Source: an uncultured virus (IMG/VR IMGVR_UViG_3300000115_000013)
Lineage: Duplodnaviria > Heunggongvirae > Uroviricota > Caudoviricetes
IMG/VR virus record: IMGVR_UViG_3300000115_000013
Coordinates: 1 to 64,000 of that record
Length of the DNA: 64,000 bases
Strand: one strand, 5' to 3'
This document shows, piece after piece, positions 12,004-51,100 of the stretch (position 1 is its first letter; each line of letters begins with the position of its first letter). The position numbers and the translations under genes were made by a program. Under the pieces are notes generated by a model. That model worked only from the letters and a program-made list of their open reading frames with translations. It was not told where the DNA came from and did not search any database.

Positions 12004-13454
12004 TTATAATTCACCTTTTCTATATGAAAGGGATACTTGGCTTCTCGATAAAATTTCTTTCGCTCAGTCAAATGTCTCTTGCTAAATTTTGCACTACTCG
12101 TTATATCCCAGATTTGAACACTGTCTTTATCTTGTGCTTTTCGAATACCTCTACCGATACTTTGAATTACACGAACAAAAGATTTTCCAGGTTCAAAAAG
12201 GACTAAATTAAAAATCCTAGGGATGTTAATACCAACAGCGGCAACCCCATAGGTTGCAACGATAATTTTACCAGTTGCATCAGCTACTTCATCATATTCG
12301 TCTTTTCTATCCTTACTTTTCATACTACCACTAATAAACACAACATCATCTCCCAGTCGTTCAACTAGTCCTTCACCTGCTTTGATTCTGTCAACTAATA
12401 CAAGTGTATTTCCTGACTCGGACATTGTTTTAATAATACCTGACATATAGTCTAATCGTTCTTTATTAGTAGTTAAGTAAGTAAGCTCACTTTGATAATC
12501 GCCATACGCTACAGTATCCTGAAGTTGTAATACATTAACTTCACATTGTGCTAGCACACCCATGTCTTGTAATTCAGCTGCACTAAGTTTATTTACCACT
12601 TCCCCCAAACTTACCTCTAAGCTCAGTCGTTCAAGTTCTGCTTTGGGTATTGTACCAGTTAACCCCCAACGTATTGGAACATTACTAAATGCACCTGTTA
12701 GTAGTTTTTTAAGTACATCTGCTTTTGCTTGGTGTACTTCGTCTACCATAACACATACTACACCTTCTGCAAATGCATGCAACCCCCAGTCTTGTTCACC
12801 ATCACGGAAACGCTTTTCCATAATGTTTAAACTTTGCCAAGTACAAATGGTATGTGTTTTACCAAACTCTTTACGGTCACCAAAGTACACACCTACATCT
12901 AAACCTAAGTTAATGTAGTCAGCTTCTGTCTGTGTTACTAGATCCTTGTTGGGCACGATAACAATACTGCGTCCGTATGCTTCAATTTTGTAACTCAGAG
13001 CCGCTGTAATTAAGGTCTTGCCTGCACCTGTGGCAATCTCTTGTAAACATTGTGGTGTTTGTAAAAACTGATTAATTATCTCAACCTGATAGTCTCTGAG
13101 TGTAATAGGCTGACCAGCCGCTGGATGTTTATCTGGCCATACTCTATCTGAAAACAATTCTTCTGTTACTAATTCAAAAGACAAATCATGAGCTTCACGT
13201 TCGTCTTGTATTTCAATTTCATAACCCTCATTTTGAATAATTGGCAAACACTTGGGAAGGCAACTAATAAATGTATTTCCTCCCATAGTAAAATACCCAA
13301 CACAACCATCCCAACGTCCTAGTTTGTAAGCAGGAACATGTCTGGCATGTGGCAACATAAATTTAAGTTCTTTTTCTAACTTCTTACGAGTGCTGAGCTC
13401 AAGACCTTCAAACTTACAATTTACTTCGTCTTTGATAATCAGTTTAGTTTTCAT
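12000..13454 (-). CDS. uvsW: UvsW-like SF2 DNA helicase
   Basis: LRDYQ, ATGAGKT, DEVH, GLTGT, QSIGRGIR. Confidence 0.92.
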   Translation of the reverse strand: MKTKLIIKDEVNCKFEGLELSTRKKLEKELKFMLPHARHVPAYKLGRWDGCVGYFTMGGNTFISCLPKCLPIIQNEGYEIEIQDEREAHDLSFELVTEELFSDRVWPDKHPAAGQPITLRDYQVEIINQFLQTPQCLQEIATGAGKTLITAALSYKIEAYGRSIVIVPNKDLVTQTEADYINLGLDVGVYFGDRKEFGKTHTICTWQSLNIMEKRFRDGEQDWGLHAFAEGVVCVMVDEVHQAKADVLKKLLTGAFSNVPIRWGLTGTIPKAELERLSLEVSLGEVVNKLSAAELQDMGVLAQCEVNVLQLQDTVAYGDYQSELTYLTTNKERLDYMSGIIKTMSESGNTLVLVDRIKAGEGLVERLGDDVVFISGSMKSKDRKDEYDEVADATGKIIVATYGVAAVGINIPRIFNLVLFEPGKSFVRVIQSIGRGIRKAQDKDSVQIWDITSSAKFSKRHLTERKKFYREAKYPFHIEKVNYK

Positions 13455-13460
13455 AATATT

Positions 13461-13489
13461 ATTATACGCTTTTTAAATAAATGTGTCAA
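13461..13489 (-). promoter_or_regulatory. Consensus sigma70 promoter of uvsW (leaderless)
   Basis: TTGACA-N17-TATAAT-N6-ATG. Confidence 0.8.
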
Positions 13490-13502
13490 TCGTTAATAAG
13501 AT

Positions 13503-13530
13503 GAGGGGACTAGTAAATACTAGCCCCCTC
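13503..13530 (-). terminator. GC-rich hairpin, likely intrinsic terminator
   Basis: GAGGGGGCTAGT/ACTAGTCCCCTC stem downstream of the ATPase gene. Confidence 0.6.
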
Positions 13531-13533
13531 CTT

Positions 13534-13587
13534 ATACTAATTGACTTGAGTGAGAGTGCAGACAGAGGAGTCCTAGTCAATTAGTAT
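13534..13587 (-). ncRNA. Candidate 3'-UTR-derived hairpin sRNA with anti-SD loop
   Basis: Perfect 13-bp stem; the 28-nt loop contains CUCCUCU and UCUCACUC. Confidence 0.45.
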
Positions 13588-13593
13588 TTTCCG

Positions 13594-14610
13594 TTAACCT
13601 CGCTTCATGCAGGTCATTTCCACATAACGTTTCCACTTTACACCGTTCATCTTCTTGAGATCGGCAATTTTAAGTACCATACGCAAGCTCATCTCACGTA
13701 GCTTAGTACGGTTATCATGTATGTGATTCAACATGTCCTGCTTTTCGTCTTGAGGGAAGTTGTATTCATCTAGCATGCCATCTGAAACAATCTGCTTACA
13801 ACGCAACCACTTTTCGTGCATTGTGTCCAGTGTAAGGTCCAAATAGTGGCAACGTGACATAATAGCATCTAAGTGATCCTTAATCTTACCACGTGTTTTC
13901 TCAAACTTAAGGTTAGTAATAAAGATAATACTTCCTTTAAATTCGAACTTATCTGGAATTCCTTCGTTATGCAGTACACGGCTTTCGCTACGCCAGCTTA
14001 GGAACCGCTTTGGGCTACTGTCTAATGCTGCCTTTAACAAGTTAAGCGAAGTTTCATCATACAGTACACTATCGCAATCATCTAGTACAAGTACACTTCC
14101 TGCATTTGCATATTCAAATAGTAGCTTGTACAAACCAATGGCACTTGCTGCACCTTTTTCCATTCCAAACTTGCGTCCAGTTGATTCTGCACCTCCACTT
14201 AGTTTGTTCATAGTTTCAGCTTCACGCATTACTTTTTCAACACCGTATGATTTGCCTACGCCTGGAGGGCCTGTAACAACCATTCCACGTACTACACCAT
14301 CACATGATGCATAGCTCATATCTTCTAGTACTTGAAAACGCTCACGCAGACGTTCAATTATTTGATCATCTGTTTCAGTTATTTCTGGAACAGTTACTTG
14401 TGGCTCTCCAGTTTCTGACATTAAAGAAAAACAAGTTTTATCTGACACACCAATTCTTACATTACGATCTGGCATATTAATTTGGTCAGTTCCGTCTACT
14501 GTAATATACGCACCGCTTGCACCGTTACGAAAATCTTTTGTTAGATTAAAAACTCGTTCAGTTACTGGTTCGTTACGATATGTTCCGTTATGTACTAACA
14601 CTTGCTGCAT
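13594..14610 (-). CDS. AAA/P-loop ATPase
   Basis: GPPGVGKS, VLVLDDCD, IFITN, SRC Arg finger; start at 14610 after GGAG. Confidence 0.8.
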   Translation of the reverse strand: MQQVLVHNGTYRNEPVTERVFNLTKDFRNGASGAYITVDGTDQINMPDRNVRIGVSDKTCFSLMSETGEPQVTVPEITETDDQIIERLRERFQVLEDMSYASCDGVVRGMVVTGPPGVGKSYGVEKVMREAETMNKLSGGAESTGRKFGMEKGAASAIGLYKLLFEYANAGSVLVLDDCDSVLYDETSLNLLKAALDSSPKRFLSWRSESRVLHNEGIPDKFEFKGSIIFITNLKFEKTRGKIKDHLDAIMSRCHYLDLTLDTMHEKWLRCKQIVSDGMLDEYNFPQDEKQDMLNHIHDNRTKLREMSLRMVLKIADLKKMNGVKWKRYVEMTCMKRG

Positions 14611-14644
14611 GGTTCTCACTCCGTTTTGCATTAACTATATGTAT

Positions 14645-14672
14645 ATAATAGCATCACTGTATTATATGTCAA
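14645..14672 (-). promoter_or_regulatory. Sigma70-type early promoter
   Basis: TTGACA-N16-TATTAT with extended -10 TG. Confidence 0.55.
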
Positions 14673-18142: not shown

Positions 18143-18383
18143 TTACTTTCCTTATTTGATTGGCATATTCAACTGAATGTTTTCTTACTACTTCATTGGT
18201 TAAAATACCGTTAATATAATTGTTAGCTGCATCCTTTACATAATGAAAACTATTATCAGGATAATGTATAGTTCCAATATATTCATTATTTTCATAACAA
18301 ACTAGCATTAATACTTCATCATCCATTATGCTAATAGATGCAGTTTTATTATTTTCTTTATTTTTAAATTCATTATAAGACAT
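18135..18383 (-). CDS. Hypothetical protein
   Basis: 82-aa ORF in operon. Confidence 0.55.
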   Translation of the reverse strand: MSYNEFKNKENNKTASISIMDDEVLMLVCYENNEYIGTIHYPDNSFHYVKDAANNYINGILTNEVVRKHSVEYANQIRKVND

Positions 18384-18391
18384 CTTAATTC

Positions 18392-19701: not shown

Positions 19702-19777
19702 TGGTGCCGCAACCAAGATTCGAACTCGGGACCTACTGATTACAAATCAGTTGCTCTACCAACTGAGCTATTGCGGC
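19702..19777 (-). tRNA. tRNA-Thr(TGT)
   Basis: Cloverleaf; loop TTTGTAA; GTTCGAA T-loop; encoded CCA. Confidence 0.95.
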
Positions 19778-19778
19778 G

Positions 19779-19853
19779 TTATCGTTTTACTCTGCAATTA
19801 GGACAAAAATCGTTATGACCTAATTCTGTTTTACAATCTGGACAAGTTTTCAT
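19779..19853 (-). CDS. 24-aa zinc-ribbon micro-protein MKTCPDCKTELGHNDFCPNCRVKR
   Basis: Two CxxC motifs; TAAGTA-N5-ATG; fills the gap between two tRNAs. Confidence 0.6.
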   Translation of the reverse strand: MKTCPDCKTELGHNDFCPNCRVKR

Positions 19854-19878
19854 AAAAATACTTATCCGTGGGTTAATT

Positions 19879-19962
19879 TGGTACTCGCACCCGGACTCGA
19901 ACCGGGACGCCTTACGGCCACAGATTTTAAGTCTGTTATGTCTACCATTCCATCATGCGAGC
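19879..19962 (-). tRNA. tRNA-Leu(TAA)
   Basis: Loop CTTAAAA; long variable arm; A73; CCA. Confidence 0.93.
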
Positions 19963-19965
19963 ATC

Positions 19966-20055
19966 TGGCAGTGAGGGTGGGATTCGAACCCACGGAACGC
20001 TTGCACGTTCTCCGGATTAGTAATCCGGCGCTTTCGGCCACTCAGCCACCTCACC
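19966..20055 (-). tRNA. tRNA-Ser(ACT), unusual A34 anticodon
   Basis: Stem CCGGA/TCCGG; loop TTACTAA; long variable arm; G73; CCA. Confidence 0.88.
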
Positions 20056-20059
20056 TTAA

Positions 20060-20245
20060 CACTTGTAGGATTCAGGAAGGTCACTAGGTAATTACTCCTA
20101 TTAATTTCCAACGCCTGTCGAAGCTAGATATGACTATGCATAGATTTTAACTATCTAGTCTTCCGACGATTTTCCTACTGTACAAAGAACGTTGCAGTTT
20201 ACTCTTATCAGTTTATTCCTGCGGTGTTCTCTGCACCATAAACTT
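20060..20245 (-). ncRNA. Candidate structured RNA inside the tRNA cluster
   Basis: Nested helices 20065-20070/20173-20178 and 20117-20130/20152-20167, plus a 5' hairpin. Confidence 0.4.
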
Positions 20246-20319
20246 TGGCAAAGGTGAGGAGAATCGAACTCCTGCTTCTGGTTTTGGAGACCAGCGTGAT
20301 ACCATTTCACCACACCCTT
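20246..20319 (-). tRNA. tRNA-Trp(CCA)
   Basis: Loop CTCCAAA; G73; CCA. Confidence 0.93.
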
Positions 20320-20324
20320 ATAAT

Positions 20325-20401
20325 TGGTACTCCCCACAGGACTCGAACCTGTAACCAAAACGTTATGAGCGTTCTGCTCTAACCAATTGAGCTAGAAGAG
20401 T
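20325..20401 (-). tRNA. tRNA with CAT anticodon (Ile2-lysidine type or elongator Met)
   Basis: Loop CTCATAA; A73; C4-G69; resembles the ileX type; CCA. Confidence 0.88.
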
Positions 20402-20409
20402 ACATATTC

Positions 20410-20486
20410 TGGCGGACCCTAGAGGATTCGAACCTCTGACCTAGTGCTTAGAAGGCACTTGCTCTATCCAGCTGAGCTAAGGGACC
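20410..20486 (-). tRNA. tRNA-Arg(TCT)
   Basis: Loop CTTCTAA; A20; CCA. Confidence 0.93.
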
Positions 20487-38409: not shown

Positions 38410-38922
38410 TTAACTAACACTATAAGAATCAATATGTGTCAATAATTGTCGTACATTAAATGCAAGATCATCTAATGTTCCATTATTATCAATAGTATGA
38501 TCTGCCATCCATTGTTGTAAACTCATACTGTTTATACTTTCTGGTGGTAAATGATCACTACGGTCAACCCATATAACTTTATCAAATACGCCTGTATTCT
38601 GCATTGCAAAGAATTCACGTTTGTTACGTAATCCACAATAGATATCATGTTCTTTAAATATTTCTCTTCCTAGAGATGCACCATCTTTTACATTATAGTT
38701 GCATATTGCATTATACCATTCTGCTCTGTGATTATGTCTATCAGCATAGCATTCTTCTTCATTTAAATAGTTATATTTGTTTTTTAAGTCATTATATATG
38801 AATAGTTTACTACAAAACTTACTACTACTTTCAAAAGTATAACCATACCGATCTCTCAGTATTTCACAAACTGTATCTTTGCCATGACGTCCATGGCCTA
38901 TTACAAGTAATTTTAATTTCAT
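38410..38922 (-). CDS. Deoxynucleoside-monophosphate kinase-like P-loop protein
   Basis: IGHGRHGKDT, GLR..RE, IDNNGTLDDL; TTGACA-N17-TATCAT-N5-ATG. Confidence 0.65.
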   Translation of the reverse strand: MKLKLLVIGHGRHGKDTVCEILRDRYGYTFESSSKFCSKLFIYNDLKNKYNYLNEEECYADRHNHRAEWYNAICNYNVKDGASLGREIFKEHDIYCGLRNKREFFAMQNTGVFDKVIWVDRSDHLPPESINSMSLQQWMADHTIDNNGTLDDLAFNVRQLLTHIDSYSVS

Positions 38923-42772: not shown

Positions 42773-45700
42773 ATGACTATAACAAAAAGATTAGTAAAAG
42801 GAAGTGAACTATCATATGCAGAAATGGATTCAAATTTTACTGACTTAGATGAAAGAACAGTAGTACTTGAAACTGCAAATAGTACTAGTTCACAAGTAAC
42901 TACTGCTAATATTGGTTCATTACTTAATGTGGATACAACTGGTGTTATTAATGGACAAGTATTGAAATATGATAGTAATGCTAACAAATGGAAACCATCA
43001 TCAGATTTGTCTGGTGGCGGTAGTGGAGGAGGGATTGCACTAACAGACCTGAGCTTAATACAATCTGCAGATAGCGGCTTAGGTTCTGCAACATATAACA
43101 GCGTAACTGGACAATTTACTATTGCAATGCCAGATTTAACACCATATGCTAAAACAATTCAATTATTTACAACTTCAGATGTAGATTCACATTTAAACCA
43201 AAGTAACCCAACTAATGGTTATGTTCTTAGTTGGAATGGTAGTGATTATACGTGGGTAGACAATGGAGTTATTACTGAAACAGATCCAATATTTACCGCA
43301 AGTCCAGCAAGTACTATAACAAATACAAAAATTACCAATTGGGATACATCATATGGGTGGGGAGATCACTCAGTAGAAGGTTATTTAAAGTCAGAAACAG
43401 ATCCAATCTTTACAGCACATGCGGCAAATAACGTAACAAATACAAAAATTACCAATTGGGATACATCATATGGGTGGGGAGATCACTCAGTAGAAGGTTA
43501 TTTAAAGTCAGAAACAGATCCAATATTTACCGCAAGTCCAGCAAGTACTATAACAAATACAAAAATTACCAATTGGGATACATCATATGGGTGGGGTGAT
43601 CATAGCACAGCAGGTTACTTAACAAGTTTTACAGAAACGAATACTAGTTTATCACTTGCTACTAATATACTAAAGTATACAGACGAAGCTGGCGCAGTAA
43701 CAAACATAGATTTAAGTTTATATTTAGACGACACAAATTTAGCAAAATTAACATCTGGTACAATTAATGGAGCTACTGGTATAGCAACATTTCTCAGAGA
43801 TGATGCTTCATCTTTTACAGTTGATTTTAGTCAACTCTTTGACGATACAAACTTATCTAGAATTGACAGCGCAACCTTTGCTAGTGGAACTCTAACACTT
43901 ACTAGAAGTGATACATCAACTGCATCTACTGTCAATTTGGACGGTAGATATCTACAAAACTTAGCCACGCAAACTACTGATAATCTTTCTGAAGGGTCTA
44001 CAAATCTTTATTATACTCAAGCAAGATTCAATTCTGCACTATCTACTAAATCTACAACAGACCTTTCTGAAGGAACCAACTTATACTATACAGACGCTAG
44101 AGTAGATGCAAGGATCACCAATGCTGGGTTGTTTGATGGAGATTATAATTCCCTAACAAACCTACCAACTCTATTTAATGGACAATTTGGTAGTCTTACT
44201 GGTAAACCAACTACAATATCAGGGTATGGAATTACAGATGCATTTGATGGTGACTATACAAATTTAACAAACAAACCAACATTATTTGATGGGCAGTTCA
44301 GTTCTTTAACTAACACGCCAACTACAATAGCAGGTTATGGAATTACTGATGCATTGGCATTAGGTACAACTAGTACAACAGCACTAGCAGGTGATACAGC
44401 ATTATTTGATGGTGACTACACGAACTTAACAAATAAACCTACCATACCTGCTGTGCTTACAGATTTAAGTATTAGTGATGGCACAAATGGTCAAGTATTA
44501 ACAACAGATGGTAGCGGAAACTTTACCTTCCAAGCTATTTCAGCTGGTGGATCTACTACACTTTCTGGACTAACTGATACAACAATTGCAAGCGTACAGC
44601 AATTCCAATCATTACAATGGAGTGGGACAAAATGGGTAAACGCTTATCCTAGTATACAGCATTTATCAGACATTGATAGACTAAACAATCCATCAAACGG
44701 TGATACTCTGGTATGGAATGCACTTAACAATCAATATGAATATTCTCAGGCAGTTGTTTCTGACCAATCACTTGCTACTACAGACGATGTAATATTTAAT
44801 AATATTACAGCAACAAATCTTGTTCAAGCAAATGCATTTGAAGGTAACATATATGACACTAACGGTAATGTTCTACTTGATAATACAAGTGGTGCGGCAA
44901 GTTTCGGTGGTAATATTTCATCAAGTGGTTCATCATCATTCTCAGGTACAGTAGATTTCAATGGTGCTACAATTAACAATTTAAATTTAGCATTAGGAGA
45001 TTTATCAAATGTAGATCCGGTAGCCCCAACAACTGGCCATGTTTTAAAATGGGGTGGCAGCCAATGGGCTCCTGGACTTAGTGGCGATATGCCAACATCG
45101 GGCGGCACGTTTACTGGTGATGTAAATTTTGCTACAGGCAAAATAACAGGCGTTACTGATATTACCACAGGCCCAGCATCTGGAAGTCCTAGCATAAACC
45201 TTGGTGACGGTACTGGCAACTTCGGTAATCCTATTATCAATTTCAACGCCGCAACCGCTGGCGTATCAGGACACATTACACATATCGCAAATGGTGGATT
45301 TGAAATAAAATCTAATAGTGGAGGCGAGTACATACGATTGCAGACATATGACTCTAGTCATTTCACGCCTTTAGAAGTTGTTGGAAATGTCGTTACAATT
45401 AGCCAGGCATATACTCTTCCTTCAAGTGATGGCACAACCGGACAAGTACTACAAACCAATGGCGCAGGTGTTTTAAGTTTTACATCATTAAGCAGTGGAG
45501 GCATACTTAGTTTAGCAGATGACACAACACCACAACTAGGTGGTGCTCTAGATTCTAACTCCCATGATGTAGTGCTTAAAGGTACTGGTCCTTATTATAA
45601 TAATAATATAACCTTTGATGCTAGTCAAGACATACTTCATTTTGAAGATGGTATGACAATAAGAATGGGCACAGGCTCTGGTGCAGCTGACGGTGAAGAT

Positions 45701-48151: not shown

Positions 48152-51100
48152 ATGCCAATTATTAATTTACCAAGTTCAAGTAGTTCAATGTTAAGAGGTA
48201 ACACAGCAGGCGGAGGCGGTGCTTTCGACCCTTTAATTGGTGAACACACTTATACCACACCGGGTCAATATTATTTTACAGTACCTGCTGGTGTCACATC
48301 GCTTAGTGCAGTAGTTGTTGGCGGTGGTGGTTCAGGAGGTAAAGGCACAAATGCCGCAGGCGGCGGTGCGTTAGCATATGTAAATAATAAAACATATACT
48401 CCAGGCACGATTCTTACTATTGTTGTTGGCGCTGGCGGGACAGGACCATCAGGTGCTGGTACAAATAACGAACCTGGAGAAGCTGGCGGAAGCAGTTATG
48501 CGTTAGGTGCCCATGCTGGCGGTGGCGATGGCGGTCAGGCAGGTGGCCCTGCATATGGTATAGATGGACAATTTGGAGGCGGTGGCCTTGGTGGAGTACC
48601 AAGTGGTGTATATACAGTTGGACGTACAGGCGGTCGCGGCGGAGGACATTCAGGTGTAGGCGATAACTCAGGGGGCGGTAGTGCTGCGGGTTATAGTTCA
48701 AACGGTAAAAACGGTGGTAGCGCATCCGGATCTAGTGCCGGGTTAGCAGGAGCTGGCGGCTCTGGTGGTTCTGGTGCTGGTACAAACTCACCCGCAAATG
48801 GTGGGTCCTATGTGATTGGTGGATCGGGCGGCGGCGTTGGTACATACGGTGAAGGTTCAAATGGAGCCGCAGGACAGGCTAGTGCATCAACTCAAGCAGA
48901 TGCACACGGTACTGCAGGATCAGGTGGATCGGGTGTAACTCATGGTGCTGGTACTGGTAGTGCTTACGGGGGTTCTTATACATTAGACGGCGGTGATGGC
49001 GCAGTTCGTATTATATACGGTGCAGGACGAGCGTTTCCTTCAACTAACACAAGTGCTGCTATTTCTGGTAGTAATATTACATTAAACGGTACGCAGATTG
49101 CATCATCAGCAACTGGCGAACATCAATTTCTTAACCCTGGTACATTTAGTTGGTTGTGCCCCACAGGAGTTACCAAAGTTAGCGTAGTTTGTATTGGCGG
49201 TGGCGGAGGCGGCGGTGGCGGTTATGGACCTGGCGGTGGCGGAGGCGGTCTCGCATATAAAAATGATATTCCAGTGACACCAGGTCAAACTTACACAGTT
49301 GTAGTTGGCGATGCAGGTACTGGTGCGTCAGATGATGGTGATGGCAGCCTCTGGACACTGGCACAAGGTAGCGGTGGCGGTGCGTCTTACTTTATGAGTG
49401 CAAACACTGTTCGGGCTACTGGCGGGGCTGGAGCAACAACAACTAGTGCTTCTGGATCTGTTGGTGGCCAGTTTACTAATGGTGATAATGGCGGATCTGG
49501 CGGATTAGCCGCTGTTTCTGGAGCAGGATATCATTGGCCAGGCGGCGGCGCAGGTGGTTATACTGGAAGTGGAGGGAGAACAGGGTCAAGTGGTTCTGCA
49601 TATGCTGGTCATTCAGGAACAGATTATTATGGACATGATGGTGCCGGAGGCGGAGGCGGGGGCGGTGGATACATTGGAAGTCACACTGCTGGTGCTGGAG
49701 GCGGTGGAACTGGAATTTTTGGTCAAGGATCAAACGGAGCTGGTGGAACAAATGGACCAACTGGTGGTGGTGGAGGATCTGGTGGTGGTGCTGGTTCCGC
49801 TGGTGTTGGTAATACTGGTGGTATTGGTGGTAGCCCTGGTGGTGGCGGTGGTTGCGGTTATTACACTGGCGGCGATGGCGCCGCAGGTGCAGTTCGTATT
49901 GTTTGGGGTGGCAGAGCATTTCCTAGTGCAAATGTTGATTTAGCATCGTCAAATTCAAATGTTACCTACGAACCAGCAGCTGGTCCTAATTGGACAACGT
50001 TATCGCAGACTCAACAAGTGGTTGCTGGTTCGCCAAGTTTGAATGCAGCATTTGGACGAAGTCTGGCTTTTTCAGAGGACGGAAATTACCTTCTGGTTGG
50101 TGCATCAGGTGATAGATCAGGCGGAACTTGGACTGGGAGAGTTTGGGCTTATTCAAGGAGTGGAAATACTTGGTCAAACAATCAAAATTTTGTTCCACCT
50201 AATATTACAGCCAATGACAATTTTGGTTGGGCTATTGATATTACAGGAAACTCCACAGCGGTAATAGGGGGTAGATCTGAAACTGTAGGTGGTGTATCAG
50301 ATGCAGGAGCCGCATATATTTACACACGCTCAGGAACTAACTGGTCAAGGGTTGCAGATTTAACTCAAAGTGACCCAACTTTTAACGTACTATATGGTGG
50401 TGGTGTTGGAATCAGTGGACAAACTGCTGTTGTGGCTGCTCAACAGTTTGCTGGCGGCGGTAAAGTTTATATTTGGTACAACACTTCTGGAAATAATTGG
50501 TCACTGCAAACAACTCTAAGCGGTGCCGCAAGTGGGGATAGCTTTGGTAGCCAAGTGGCTATTGACGGTGACACATTGGCTGTTTCTGCCCCTTATGCAG
50601 AGGTTTCTGGTGTATCAAATAGAGGGCTTATATATATTTATACTAGGTCTGGAACTACTTGGTCGCTACAGCAAACTATTAATCACGGTACAATTAATTC
50701 CAGCGCCACCGTCCAAGGCGCTAATGGCTTAGTGCTTAAAAATAATACTTTAATTTTTAGTTCCAACACGTATGTCCCAAGTGGAAGTAGTAATACTAAT
50801 GTTGGTGGTATTTTTGTATACACTCGGTCAGGTACAACCTGGTCACACGAAGCAACAATAACTCCAGATCTAGCTAGTAACGGTTATATAAGTATGTTTG
50901 GTGGTGATGAGAATACAGTTGCAATTGGACATCACGGATACAACAGCAATCAGGGGCGGGCTTGGGTTTATAGTAGATCAGGTACAAGTTGGTCACTTCA
51001 AAAATCGCTTACTGGTAGTGGCACAGCTAGTGGTGATTACTTTGGTTATCCGTCGCATGCTGTTAGTTCCAGTGGTGAGCAAGTTGCGGTTGTGGCAGGT

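Follow-up and report, generated by a model that had tools for sequence, protein, structure and literature searches.

A candidate anti-translation-initiation element in the 3′ untranslated region of a phage AAA+ ATPase gene

The ATPase transcription unit and its 3′ hairpin

The window analysed here is a stretch of 64,000 nucleotides (nt), positions 1 to 64,000 of the IMG/VR virus record IMGVR_UViG_3300000115_000013 (Caudoviricetes), and it carries a gene for an AAA+ ATPase that is followed by a large hairpin in the untranslated region at its 3′ end (3′UTR). The loop of this hairpin contains the exact complement of the Shine-Dalgarno (SD) region in that same gene's ribosome-binding site (RBS), and we suspect that the hairpin is a cis-encoded element that acts on translation initiation. 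The full record is 74 kb long and its completeness is estimated by CheckV at about 20%, which points to a giant phage. The genes around the hairpin are oriented along the minus strand (Table 1).

Table 1. Features of the ATPase transcription unit, in window coordinates
Feature	Positions	Strand	Remarks
Sigma-70-type early promoter of the ATPase mRNA, TTGACA-16-TG-TATTAT, extended -10	14645..14672	-	promoter scan
Extended SD block GGAGUGAGA of the ATPase gene	14614..14622	-	GAGUGAGA (14621-14614) is the predicted loop partner
AAA+ ATPase coding sequence	13594..14610	-	338 aa, PHROG 1250, TAA stop; N-terminal beta-rich domain, then AAA+ core
Hairpin 5′ arm AUACUAAUUGACU (ATACTAATTGACT, 13587-13575)	13575..13587	-	perfect 13-bp stem
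CU-rich loop of 28 nt, AGGACUCCUCUGUCUGCACUCUCACUCA	13547..13574	-	holds CUCCUCUGUCUGC (13570-13558) and the anti-RBS UCUCACUC (13555-13548)
Hairpin 3′ arm AGUCAAUUAGUAU (AGTCAATTAGTAT, 13546-13534)	13534..13546	-	pairs with the 5′ arm
Terminator hairpin (13530-13503) and U-containing tail	13493..13530	-	predicted 3′ end of the monocistronic ATPase mRNA
Consensus promoter of the next gene, TTGACA-17-TATAAT, 12/12 positions	13452..13489	-	UvsW-like SF2 helicase, ATG 13454

The promoter and the terminator bracket the ATPase as a monocistronic unit. The promoter agrees with the consensus at 11 of 12 positions, has a TG preceding the -10 element, keeps the same layout in relatives, and would leave a 5′UTR of about 28 nt if the start site is placed correctly. 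Pfam, NCBIfam and PDB profile searches of the protein return generic AAA matches only, with no solved relative by sequence in the PDB profile search, and Foldseek matches its AlphaFold model (pLDDT 82.9) only to generic AAA+ folds (NorQ/CbbQ, RFC) at TM scores of about 0.4-0.47.

An earlier note on this DNA, made from the sequence without database searches, described a perfect 13-bp stem with a 28-nt loop and a terminator-like hairpin behind the ATPase stop codon, and both the sequence and its folding confirm this arrangement. The stem begins 6 nt past the stop codon. The 111-nt tail of the ATPase has a minimum free energy of -39.9 kcal/mol, compared with -22.5 ± 2.9 kcal/mol in 200 shuffles (z = -6.0; none as stable), and its fold consists of the predicted 13-bp stem with its 28-nt loop plus the terminator-like hairpin. 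The latter has 12 pairs, seven of them G-C, and is followed by the just moderately T-rich tail ATCTTATTAA; it qualifies as a Rho-independent terminator, and a GC-rich hairpin of equivalent structure lies downstream of the element in all relatives read. The promoter scan, which on the minus strand covered the interval from the ATPase stop to the hairpin and the final 100 nt of the coding sequence, found no promoter for the hairpin itself.

The next gene encodes the UvsW-like helicase, whose TATAAT -10 element ends only 6 nt 5′ of the ATG, an arrangement kept in relatives, and for this reason the gene looks leaderless. With the starts at 38922 (-) and 7227 (-), this makes three leaderless-looking genes in the record, with a consensus-like -10 element 5-6 nt upstream and no SD. 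The leaderless phage genes of the earlier note therefore hold up in the case of the helicase, but their proposed escape from a global silencing is unsupported.

The window's record and five long related contigs each contain one copy of the element. At gathering thresholds Rfam 15 recovers six tRNAs in the window and no family for the hairpin, and a permissive scan of positions 13400-13700 gives two chance-level matches, of 15.6 bits (cutoff 102) and 15.4 bits (cutoff 50). Megablast and blastn searches of 50,697 records of cultured phages with the locus and the element gave no match. A covariance model of the element finds nothing in 18 loop-less relatives, in a T4-like coliphage or at the locus of phage PA5oct, and it confirms the element in one cellular record, a contig of a metagenome-assembled genome labelled Gammaproteobacteria, which may be a binned phage contig. 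With this as the sole cellular record carrying the element, nothing here backs the alphaproteobacterial setting of the earlier note.

Conservation and co-variation of loop, stem and Shine-Dalgarno region

The exact complementarity between the loop segment UCUCACUC and GAGUGAGA in the ATPase SD region, which had been pointed out in the earlier note, is borne out, and the word GAGTGAGA occurs only twice in the window (0.86 copies expected by chance), once on the minus strand at the ATPase SD (14614-14621) and once on the plus strand as the loop's complement (13548-13555). Within this genome alone the 8-nt match exceeds chance only weakly. In a free RNAduplex scan of the record, the translation initiation region (TIR) of the ATPase ranks about 22nd of 49,364 windows, behind G-rich coding repeats that pair with the loop via G·U pairs. 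Such repeats, of the GGN type and located at about 48190-50320 (+) of the window, dominate as spurious partners of the loop. Because the match is unexceptional when only the window is considered, its significance must come from related sequences.

A protein-guided scan of IMG/VR returned 47 loci, of which 45 could be read downstream, L045 and L048 being cut. Exact copies of the loop segments CTCCTCTGTCTGC and ACTCTCACTC(A) are present in 28 of the 45 loci and absent from 16, while L021 is cut after 30 nt; CUCCUCUGUCUGC and ACUCUCACUC do not vary among the 27 protein-retrieved relatives that are readable at both ends. The SD of the ATPase is GGAGTGAGA (GGAGUGAGA) in 28 of 28 loci with a readable 5′ end (L002-L029), and its flanking bases vary. 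The 18 relatives that lack the loop (L030-L045, L047, L048) have other SDs (AGGAGUU..., GGGGG, AGAGG) with a variable spacer. An exact-pattern scan yielded 83 viral contigs with the loop, which represent 47 different sequences when flanks are included. Seven of these loci are too short upstream for the SD to be checked, and in all 76 with at least 1150 nt of upstream sequence GGAGTGAGA lies 950-1200 nt upstream as the ATPase SD, in 45 distinct contexts. Scans for near-variant loops (1-3 substitutions) and for half patterns gave at least 104 partial matches, with no near-match partner segment among the matches listed, and on these the loop appears to have no fine-scale variation inside the clade. 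Given that the four-fold degenerate sites of the ATPase are just 31-64% identical between loop-bearing lineages, the 23 invariant loop positions and nine SD positions must be under strong constraint.

Around these invariant loop segments the stem arms are wholly different between lineages, yet still complementary. In an alignment of 45 distinct hairpins, for which we specified the structure, 12 of the 13 stem pairs have undergone double, compensatory substitutions. The stem scores 0.343 for covariation, a value attained by none of 500 shuffles (0.176 ± 0.015), and sliding the partner gives no more than 0.114. On the gene-sense strand there are 19 G·U and 2 A·C cells in 39 in-register rows and 11 pairs, a set that drops the window type, the possible chimera L077, and L067, L084, L085 and L103, which are in another register; with all rows kept the counts are 29 and 18. 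Since G·U cells outnumber A·C cells there, the structure would be that of an RNA of the gene-sense strand. When folded singly, 13 of 14 representatives form a hairpin with a long stem and a large loop; in none is the 3′ half of the loop paired, and in some a mini-helix of 4-6 bp in the 5′ half presents CUCCUCU.

Many relatives also have a second hairpin between the stop codon and the element, and in 14 of 23 distinct long 3′UTRs its loop contains (U)UCUCACU or ACUCACUCA. In relatives of the largest lineage, such as L053, L056, L064, L070 and L126, the same interval holds an extra covarying hairpin whose loop often carries UUCUCACUUAC or ACUCACUCA and so presents the anti-RBS core once more.

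The more distant homologues are of particular interest, as many of them have changed their SD. From at least 504 homologues found by a profile-guided scan of metagenome contigs, the best 80 were taken, and 57 of these, representing 47 distinct TIRs, were analysed; 23 were dropped because the match did not start at residues 1-4 or the flank was cut (L359-L366, L368, L375, L382, L398, L404, L405, L409, L412, L414, L415, L417, L418, L424, L429, L430). Many of the 57 are just 45-51% identical to the window protein and use other SDs, and their 3′ tails complement their own SD. By eye we read about 14 different pairs of SD and anti-SD, mostly in hairpin loops and often in two or three copies (Table 2).

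Table 2. SD sequences of ATPase homologues and the complements found in their 3′ tails
SD	3′ tail complement	Remarks
AAGAGAGGU	ACCUCUCUU	
GAAGAGAGG	CCUCUCUUC	
GGGGAUGAC(UAA)	(UUA)GUCAUCCCC	
(C)GAGGGCA	UGCCCUC(G)	up to 3 copies
GGAGCGAG	CUCGCUCC	2-3 copies
GGAGGAGCAA	UUGCUCCUCC	
AGCUAGGAG	CUCCUAGCU	
GGAGCUAAA	UUUAGCUCC	
AGGAGCUAGA	UCUAGCUCCU	
UGUGGGAGG	CCUCCCACA	
GGAGCCAAC(C)	(G)GUUGGCUCC	in terminator loop behind one or more small ORFs (open reading frames)
GGGCUAGUAA	UUACUAGCCC	
UCCACGCAAA	UUUGCGUGGA	
UGGAGUGAGA	UCUCACUCCA	variant of the window's loop (L357/L358)

Within a 130-nt flank, a perfect complement of at least 8 nt joins the SD region and the 3′ tail in 24 of 47 own pairs and in 43 of 1686 cross-lineage pairs, defined as TIRs without a shared 6-mer. 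At a threshold of 9 nt the counts are 15 of 47 and 10 of 1686, and with a 450-nt flank (at least 8 nt) they are 28 of 47 and 123 of 1686. Orientation controls on the own pairs gave 0/47 for direct, 0/47 for reversed and 5/47 for parallel complement matches. The anti-SD copies are mostly found in predicted unpaired loops. In a maximum-likelihood tree of the protein the carriers are spread over most clades, and close sisters can carry different matched pairs (e.g., L388 versus L377/L379). Co-variation of loop and RBS in related phages, which the earlier note had proposed as a check, is therefore found across the wider ATPase family. The anti-RBS appears to be gene-specific rather than generic, since it follows the bases of each lineage beyond the SD core (GGAGCUAAA, GGAGCCAACC, GGGGAUGACUAA, GGGCUAGUAA).

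Two cultured phages that have an ATPase homologue were examined. Phage LH01 has no anti-RBS, and Pseudomonas phage PA5oct (L351) has an 8-nt match in a terminator arm that we judged to be within chance; there the terminator 3′ arm AUGCUACU complements AGUAGCAU between SD and AUG.

Predicted pairing and alternative readings

In folds of full-length mRNAs, which are approximate and use predicted starts, the pairing of the SD with the loop octamer has a probability of at least 0.98 in 8 of 12 representatives and of 0.82, 0.66, 0.26 and 0.22 in the remaining four. The minimum-energy duplex reaches the start codon, with AUGC opposite GCGU in most lineages. In the minimum-energy structure of the largest lineage, AUGCAGACA pairs with UGUCUGCGU at the start region, and in the window type UGCAG of the start region pairs with CUGCA, the GUC linker being lost. 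Forcing the SD to be unpaired costs 2.3-12.3 kcal/mol. For 30 distinct pairs of a TIR and its own loop, RNAduplex gives a mean of -25.2 kcal/mol and includes the AUG in every duplex, whereas the TIRs of loop-less relatives give -6.2 to -14.0 kcal/mol against the loop.

We read the hairpin as a cis-encoded anti-translation-initiation-region element in the ATPase 3′UTR, comparable to that of icaR, which would hide the SD and AUG of its own mRNA, and we assign this reading a probability of roughly 0.65. The element is structured, conserved and complementary to its own SD, and SD and anti-SD co-vary across the protein family. From this we infer that the two ends pair in vivo, that pairing is repressive, and that the element acts in cis rather than as an accumulating 3′ fragment. 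A 5′-3′ long-range switch on the gene's own RBS was one of the suggestions of the earlier note, and the joint conservation and co-variation of loop and RBS strongly support it.

In such a switch, the covarying stem would keep the large loop open. The 3′ half of the loop, UCUCACUC, would pair with the extended SD GAGUGAGA about 1.05 kb upstream in the same transcript, and the central part of the loop, CUGCA in the window type and GCGU/UGUCUGC in relatives, with the region of the start codon. The duplex would make both SD and AUG inaccessible to the 30S subunit and may form a substrate for RNase III. Once the 3′ end has been transcribed, initiation would slow or stop, and the ATPase output per transcript would be capped.

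Several observations weigh against this reading. In the window, complementarity of 8 nt or more between the RBS (the -20..-1 region) and the 3′ flank is seen in 6 of 158 crude ORFs, the ATPase's alone lying on the SD; 32 of 2992 ATG-centred windows equal or exceed the ATPase TIR in pairing with the loop (RNAduplex), and the window's own TIR-loop duplex, at -19.7 kcal/mol, is weaker than those of its relatives. RNAalifold predicted zero consensus pairs on the 45-sequence alignment, so that the stem rests on the structure that we named and on single-sequence folds. In the nested folding model the SD can pair with the loop only if the hairpin stem opens; a kissing complex between the loop and linear RNA, with the stem intact, seems no less likely. 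The invariance of the loop in the 83-contig set is by construction, given its retrieval by exact pattern, and the Fisher tests of own against cross-lineage pairs (p = 1e-23 and 7e-19) count related loci as independent. In about 19 of the 47 distant homologues the 450-nt flank contains no complement of 8 nt or more; some of them have 6-7-nt multi-copy matches only, and in some the next gene follows at once. Metatranscriptome contigs from four libraries in four studies span the ATPase gene, and some also the tail, with ends, strand and level unreadable and DNA carry-over possible. In one viral contig of 4.3 kb (L019, identical to L077) the arms are mismatched and the hairpin does not fold.

That contig joins the 5′ arm of one lineage to the 3′ arm of another within the invariant loop; recombination at the shared loop or a chimeric assembly may account for this.

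The 5′ half of the loop is a further point on the same side. It reads CUCCUCU here and ACCUCCU in most relatives, and a search of 67 mRNAs with CUCCUCUGUCUGC found no partner at a consistent position; elsewhere in the window and in five long contigs its complement is found at chance-level or lineage-private sites only. Because the CUCCUCU(GUCUGC) half is as invariant as the anti-RBS half and has no consistent partner in the mRNA, part of the constraint on the loop is unexplained. This half may be a second generic anti-SD, a part of the mini-helix, or a protein site.

Among the alternatives, the one that survives best is that the hairpin and terminator are released as a stable 3′UTR-derived small RNA (sRNA), which would shut off, in trans and as the fragment accumulates, the early mRNAs with a GGAGUGAGA SD, including its parent. 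Display in a loop, a terminator, and tandem hairpins with the same seed are typical of sRNA architecture, and the SD is indeed shared with a few other genes in related contigs, as the earlier note had anticipated for early genes. In 15 longer related contigs there are four extra GGAGTGAGA sites, in four contigs and each at the RBS of another gene: L432 (G002), L433/L434 (G001), L440 (G010) and L445 (G011). Three of the four follow a sigma-70-like early promoter and have a similar 5′UTR; L432 abuts the ORF before it, and the sequence read there shows no promoter. Two of the genes, in two genomes, encode homologous proteins of about 129 aa (MAFINAEDV..., MAYINAKDV...), another encodes a 114-aa protein, and one lies directly upstream of the ATPase. 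Against this, GAGTGAGA is at no other RBS in the window's 74-kb record, where a homologue of the second GGAGUGAGA-led gene of G001 was likewise not found, no internal promoter precedes the hairpin, and the element is always linked to the ATPase gene, tracking its private SD flanks in each lineage. A limited trans regulon is possible, but we regard a mainly trans-acting sRNA as unlikely. A wider picture, which we offer only tentatively, would combine both modes of action in a family of aquatic jumbo and T4-like phages with a translation timer: the early ATPase mRNA would be translatable only during its transcription, since the final portion to be made displays in a loop the complement of its own SD and AUG; a released fragment would then silence the few early genes that share the private SD, a temporal shut-off encoded by the phage that requires no protein; and SD and anti-SD would be rewritten together whenever a lineage alters its RBS.

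Pairing of the two ends might instead mainly protect or stabilise the mRNA, or couple its decay to translation, with no repression of initiation. The same SD/anti-SD co-variation would fit, and there is a precedent in hbs of Bacillus subtilis, in which, according to excerpts of a review, pairing of 5′UTR and 3′UTR protects the mRNA from RNase Y cleavage (PMC7821165). The hbs pairing shares with our element its location within one mRNA, but it leaves the SD unoccluded in that account (PMC7821165), whereas here the SD and AUG are predicted to be occluded. A duplex covering both in all 30 distinct pairs should block the 30S subunit, and we consider a purely protective role improbable.

We give still less credence to explanations that do without RNA pairing, in which the loop is a protein-binding site, or SD and loop are DNA inverted repeats that bound a mobile or invertible ATPase cassette. 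The loop is invariant over 23-26 nt throughout, more than an 8-nt pairing requires, and DNA inverted repeats would also give reverse-complement matches. However, the stem covariation and the asymmetry between G·U and A·C indicate a sense-strand RNA, the repeat is always on the SD, mostly in hairpin loops and often in several copies, and no transposase or invertase was seen among the eight neighbouring proteins scanned.

Least credible of all is a generic anti-SD decoy or sRNA whose CU-rich loop mimics the 3′ tail of 16S rRNA and sequesters SD-led host and early mRNAs while leaderless phage genes escape, the global silencing favoured by the earlier note: CUCCUCU (or ACCUCCU) does resemble the anti-SD core, is invariant and has no cis partner, and three genes of the record look leaderless, but the anti-RBS is gene-specific and, elsewhere in the family, lineage-specific into non-SD bases, the hairpin has no promoter of its own, and the top duplex partners across the record are mostly G-rich coding repeats, not RBSs.

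Relation to known systems and further observations

Folding of an mRNA's 3′ end onto its 5′ end is known from hok, with its fbi and tac elements, and from aapA3 of Helicobacter pylori, in which the full-length mRNA is translationally inert. These are small toxin mRNAs that have an antisense RNA partner and are activated by 3′ processing. Here no antisense partner was seen, and the type I toxin class was rejected for a gene that encodes a 338-aa AAA+ ATPase and not a small hydrophobic toxin. The AbcR and cuckoo/CcsR sRNAs of Alphaproteobacteria display CU-rich anti-SD motifs in hairpin loops, as the element does, but they are transcribed from their own promoters and act on many targets. The sib element of phage lambda is likewise a hairpin located 3′ of the phage gene that it controls, through RNase III processing and without SD pairing; SD complementarity sets the present hairpin apart.

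To our knowledge, pairing between the 5′UTR and 3′UTR within one bacterial mRNA is known from a handful of cases. Excerpts of a 2021 review name RNAIII/hld, icaR and hbs, and describe the icaR motif and the hbs 3′UTR as not conserved in close relatives (PMC7821165). In icaR of Staphylococcus aureus, an anti-RBS in the 3′UTR pairs with the gene's own SD, blocks initiation and gives a substrate for RNase III, as has been reported (PMC3868564). The motif there is a short UCCCC(UG) in a 3′UTR of about 390 nt, and the excerpts describe it as not conserved even in S. epidermidis (PMC7821165). The ATPase 3′UTR shares with icaR a complement to the SD of its own transcript, a resemblance of mechanism only. 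The segment here is UCUCACUC instead of UCCCC, lies in a hairpin loop beside a terminator, is predicted to cover the AUG as well, and is part of an element that co-variation maintains across a whole phage protein family.

In a 2025 preprint by Gill et al., pyrimidine-rich octamers that resemble the anti-SD and lie hundreds of nucleotides downstream are reported to pair with the RBS, repress initiation and promote decay in B. subtilis (PMC12697547). Those octamers were synthetic substitutions, and the preprint reports such sequences to be depleted from natural genes (PMC12697547), in contrast to the present element, which is positively conserved and structurally displayed. Our literature search found no description of an anti-RBS element in a phage 3′UTR. 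On the comparisons above, we suggest that the element is a phage variant, maintained in evolution, of a bacterial mechanism that is known but rare.

One loop sequence in 83 viral contigs, together with some 14 lineages in which both sides have been rewritten together, amounts to a natural compensatory-mutation experiment. If our reading is correct, control by a 3′UTR anti-RBS would be an evolutionarily stable strategy that is used by viruses. It could also provide a compact, portable translational brake for synthetic biology, and the AAA+ ATPase would stand out as a protein that the phage has to keep at a limited dose.

Some minor features of these genomes may be recorded as well. A palindrome, GTAAGAC(A/G)TCTTAC, recurs in several relatives (L005-L018, L030-L034, L433, L445), both within the spacer of early promoters and at the apex of the terminator that follows the element. 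It is a possible operator for a phage regulator, and the window contains just one TAAGACATCTTA, at 18376-18387. Two direct repeats appear in a k-mer listing, one with a unit of at least 41 nt at 43366-43372 and 43483-43489 (-) of the window, 117 nt apart, and the other with a unit of at least 43 nt at 72442 and 73429 (-) of the record, 987 nt apart and beyond the window. The six tRNA genes form a cluster at 19705-20486 (-) of the window.

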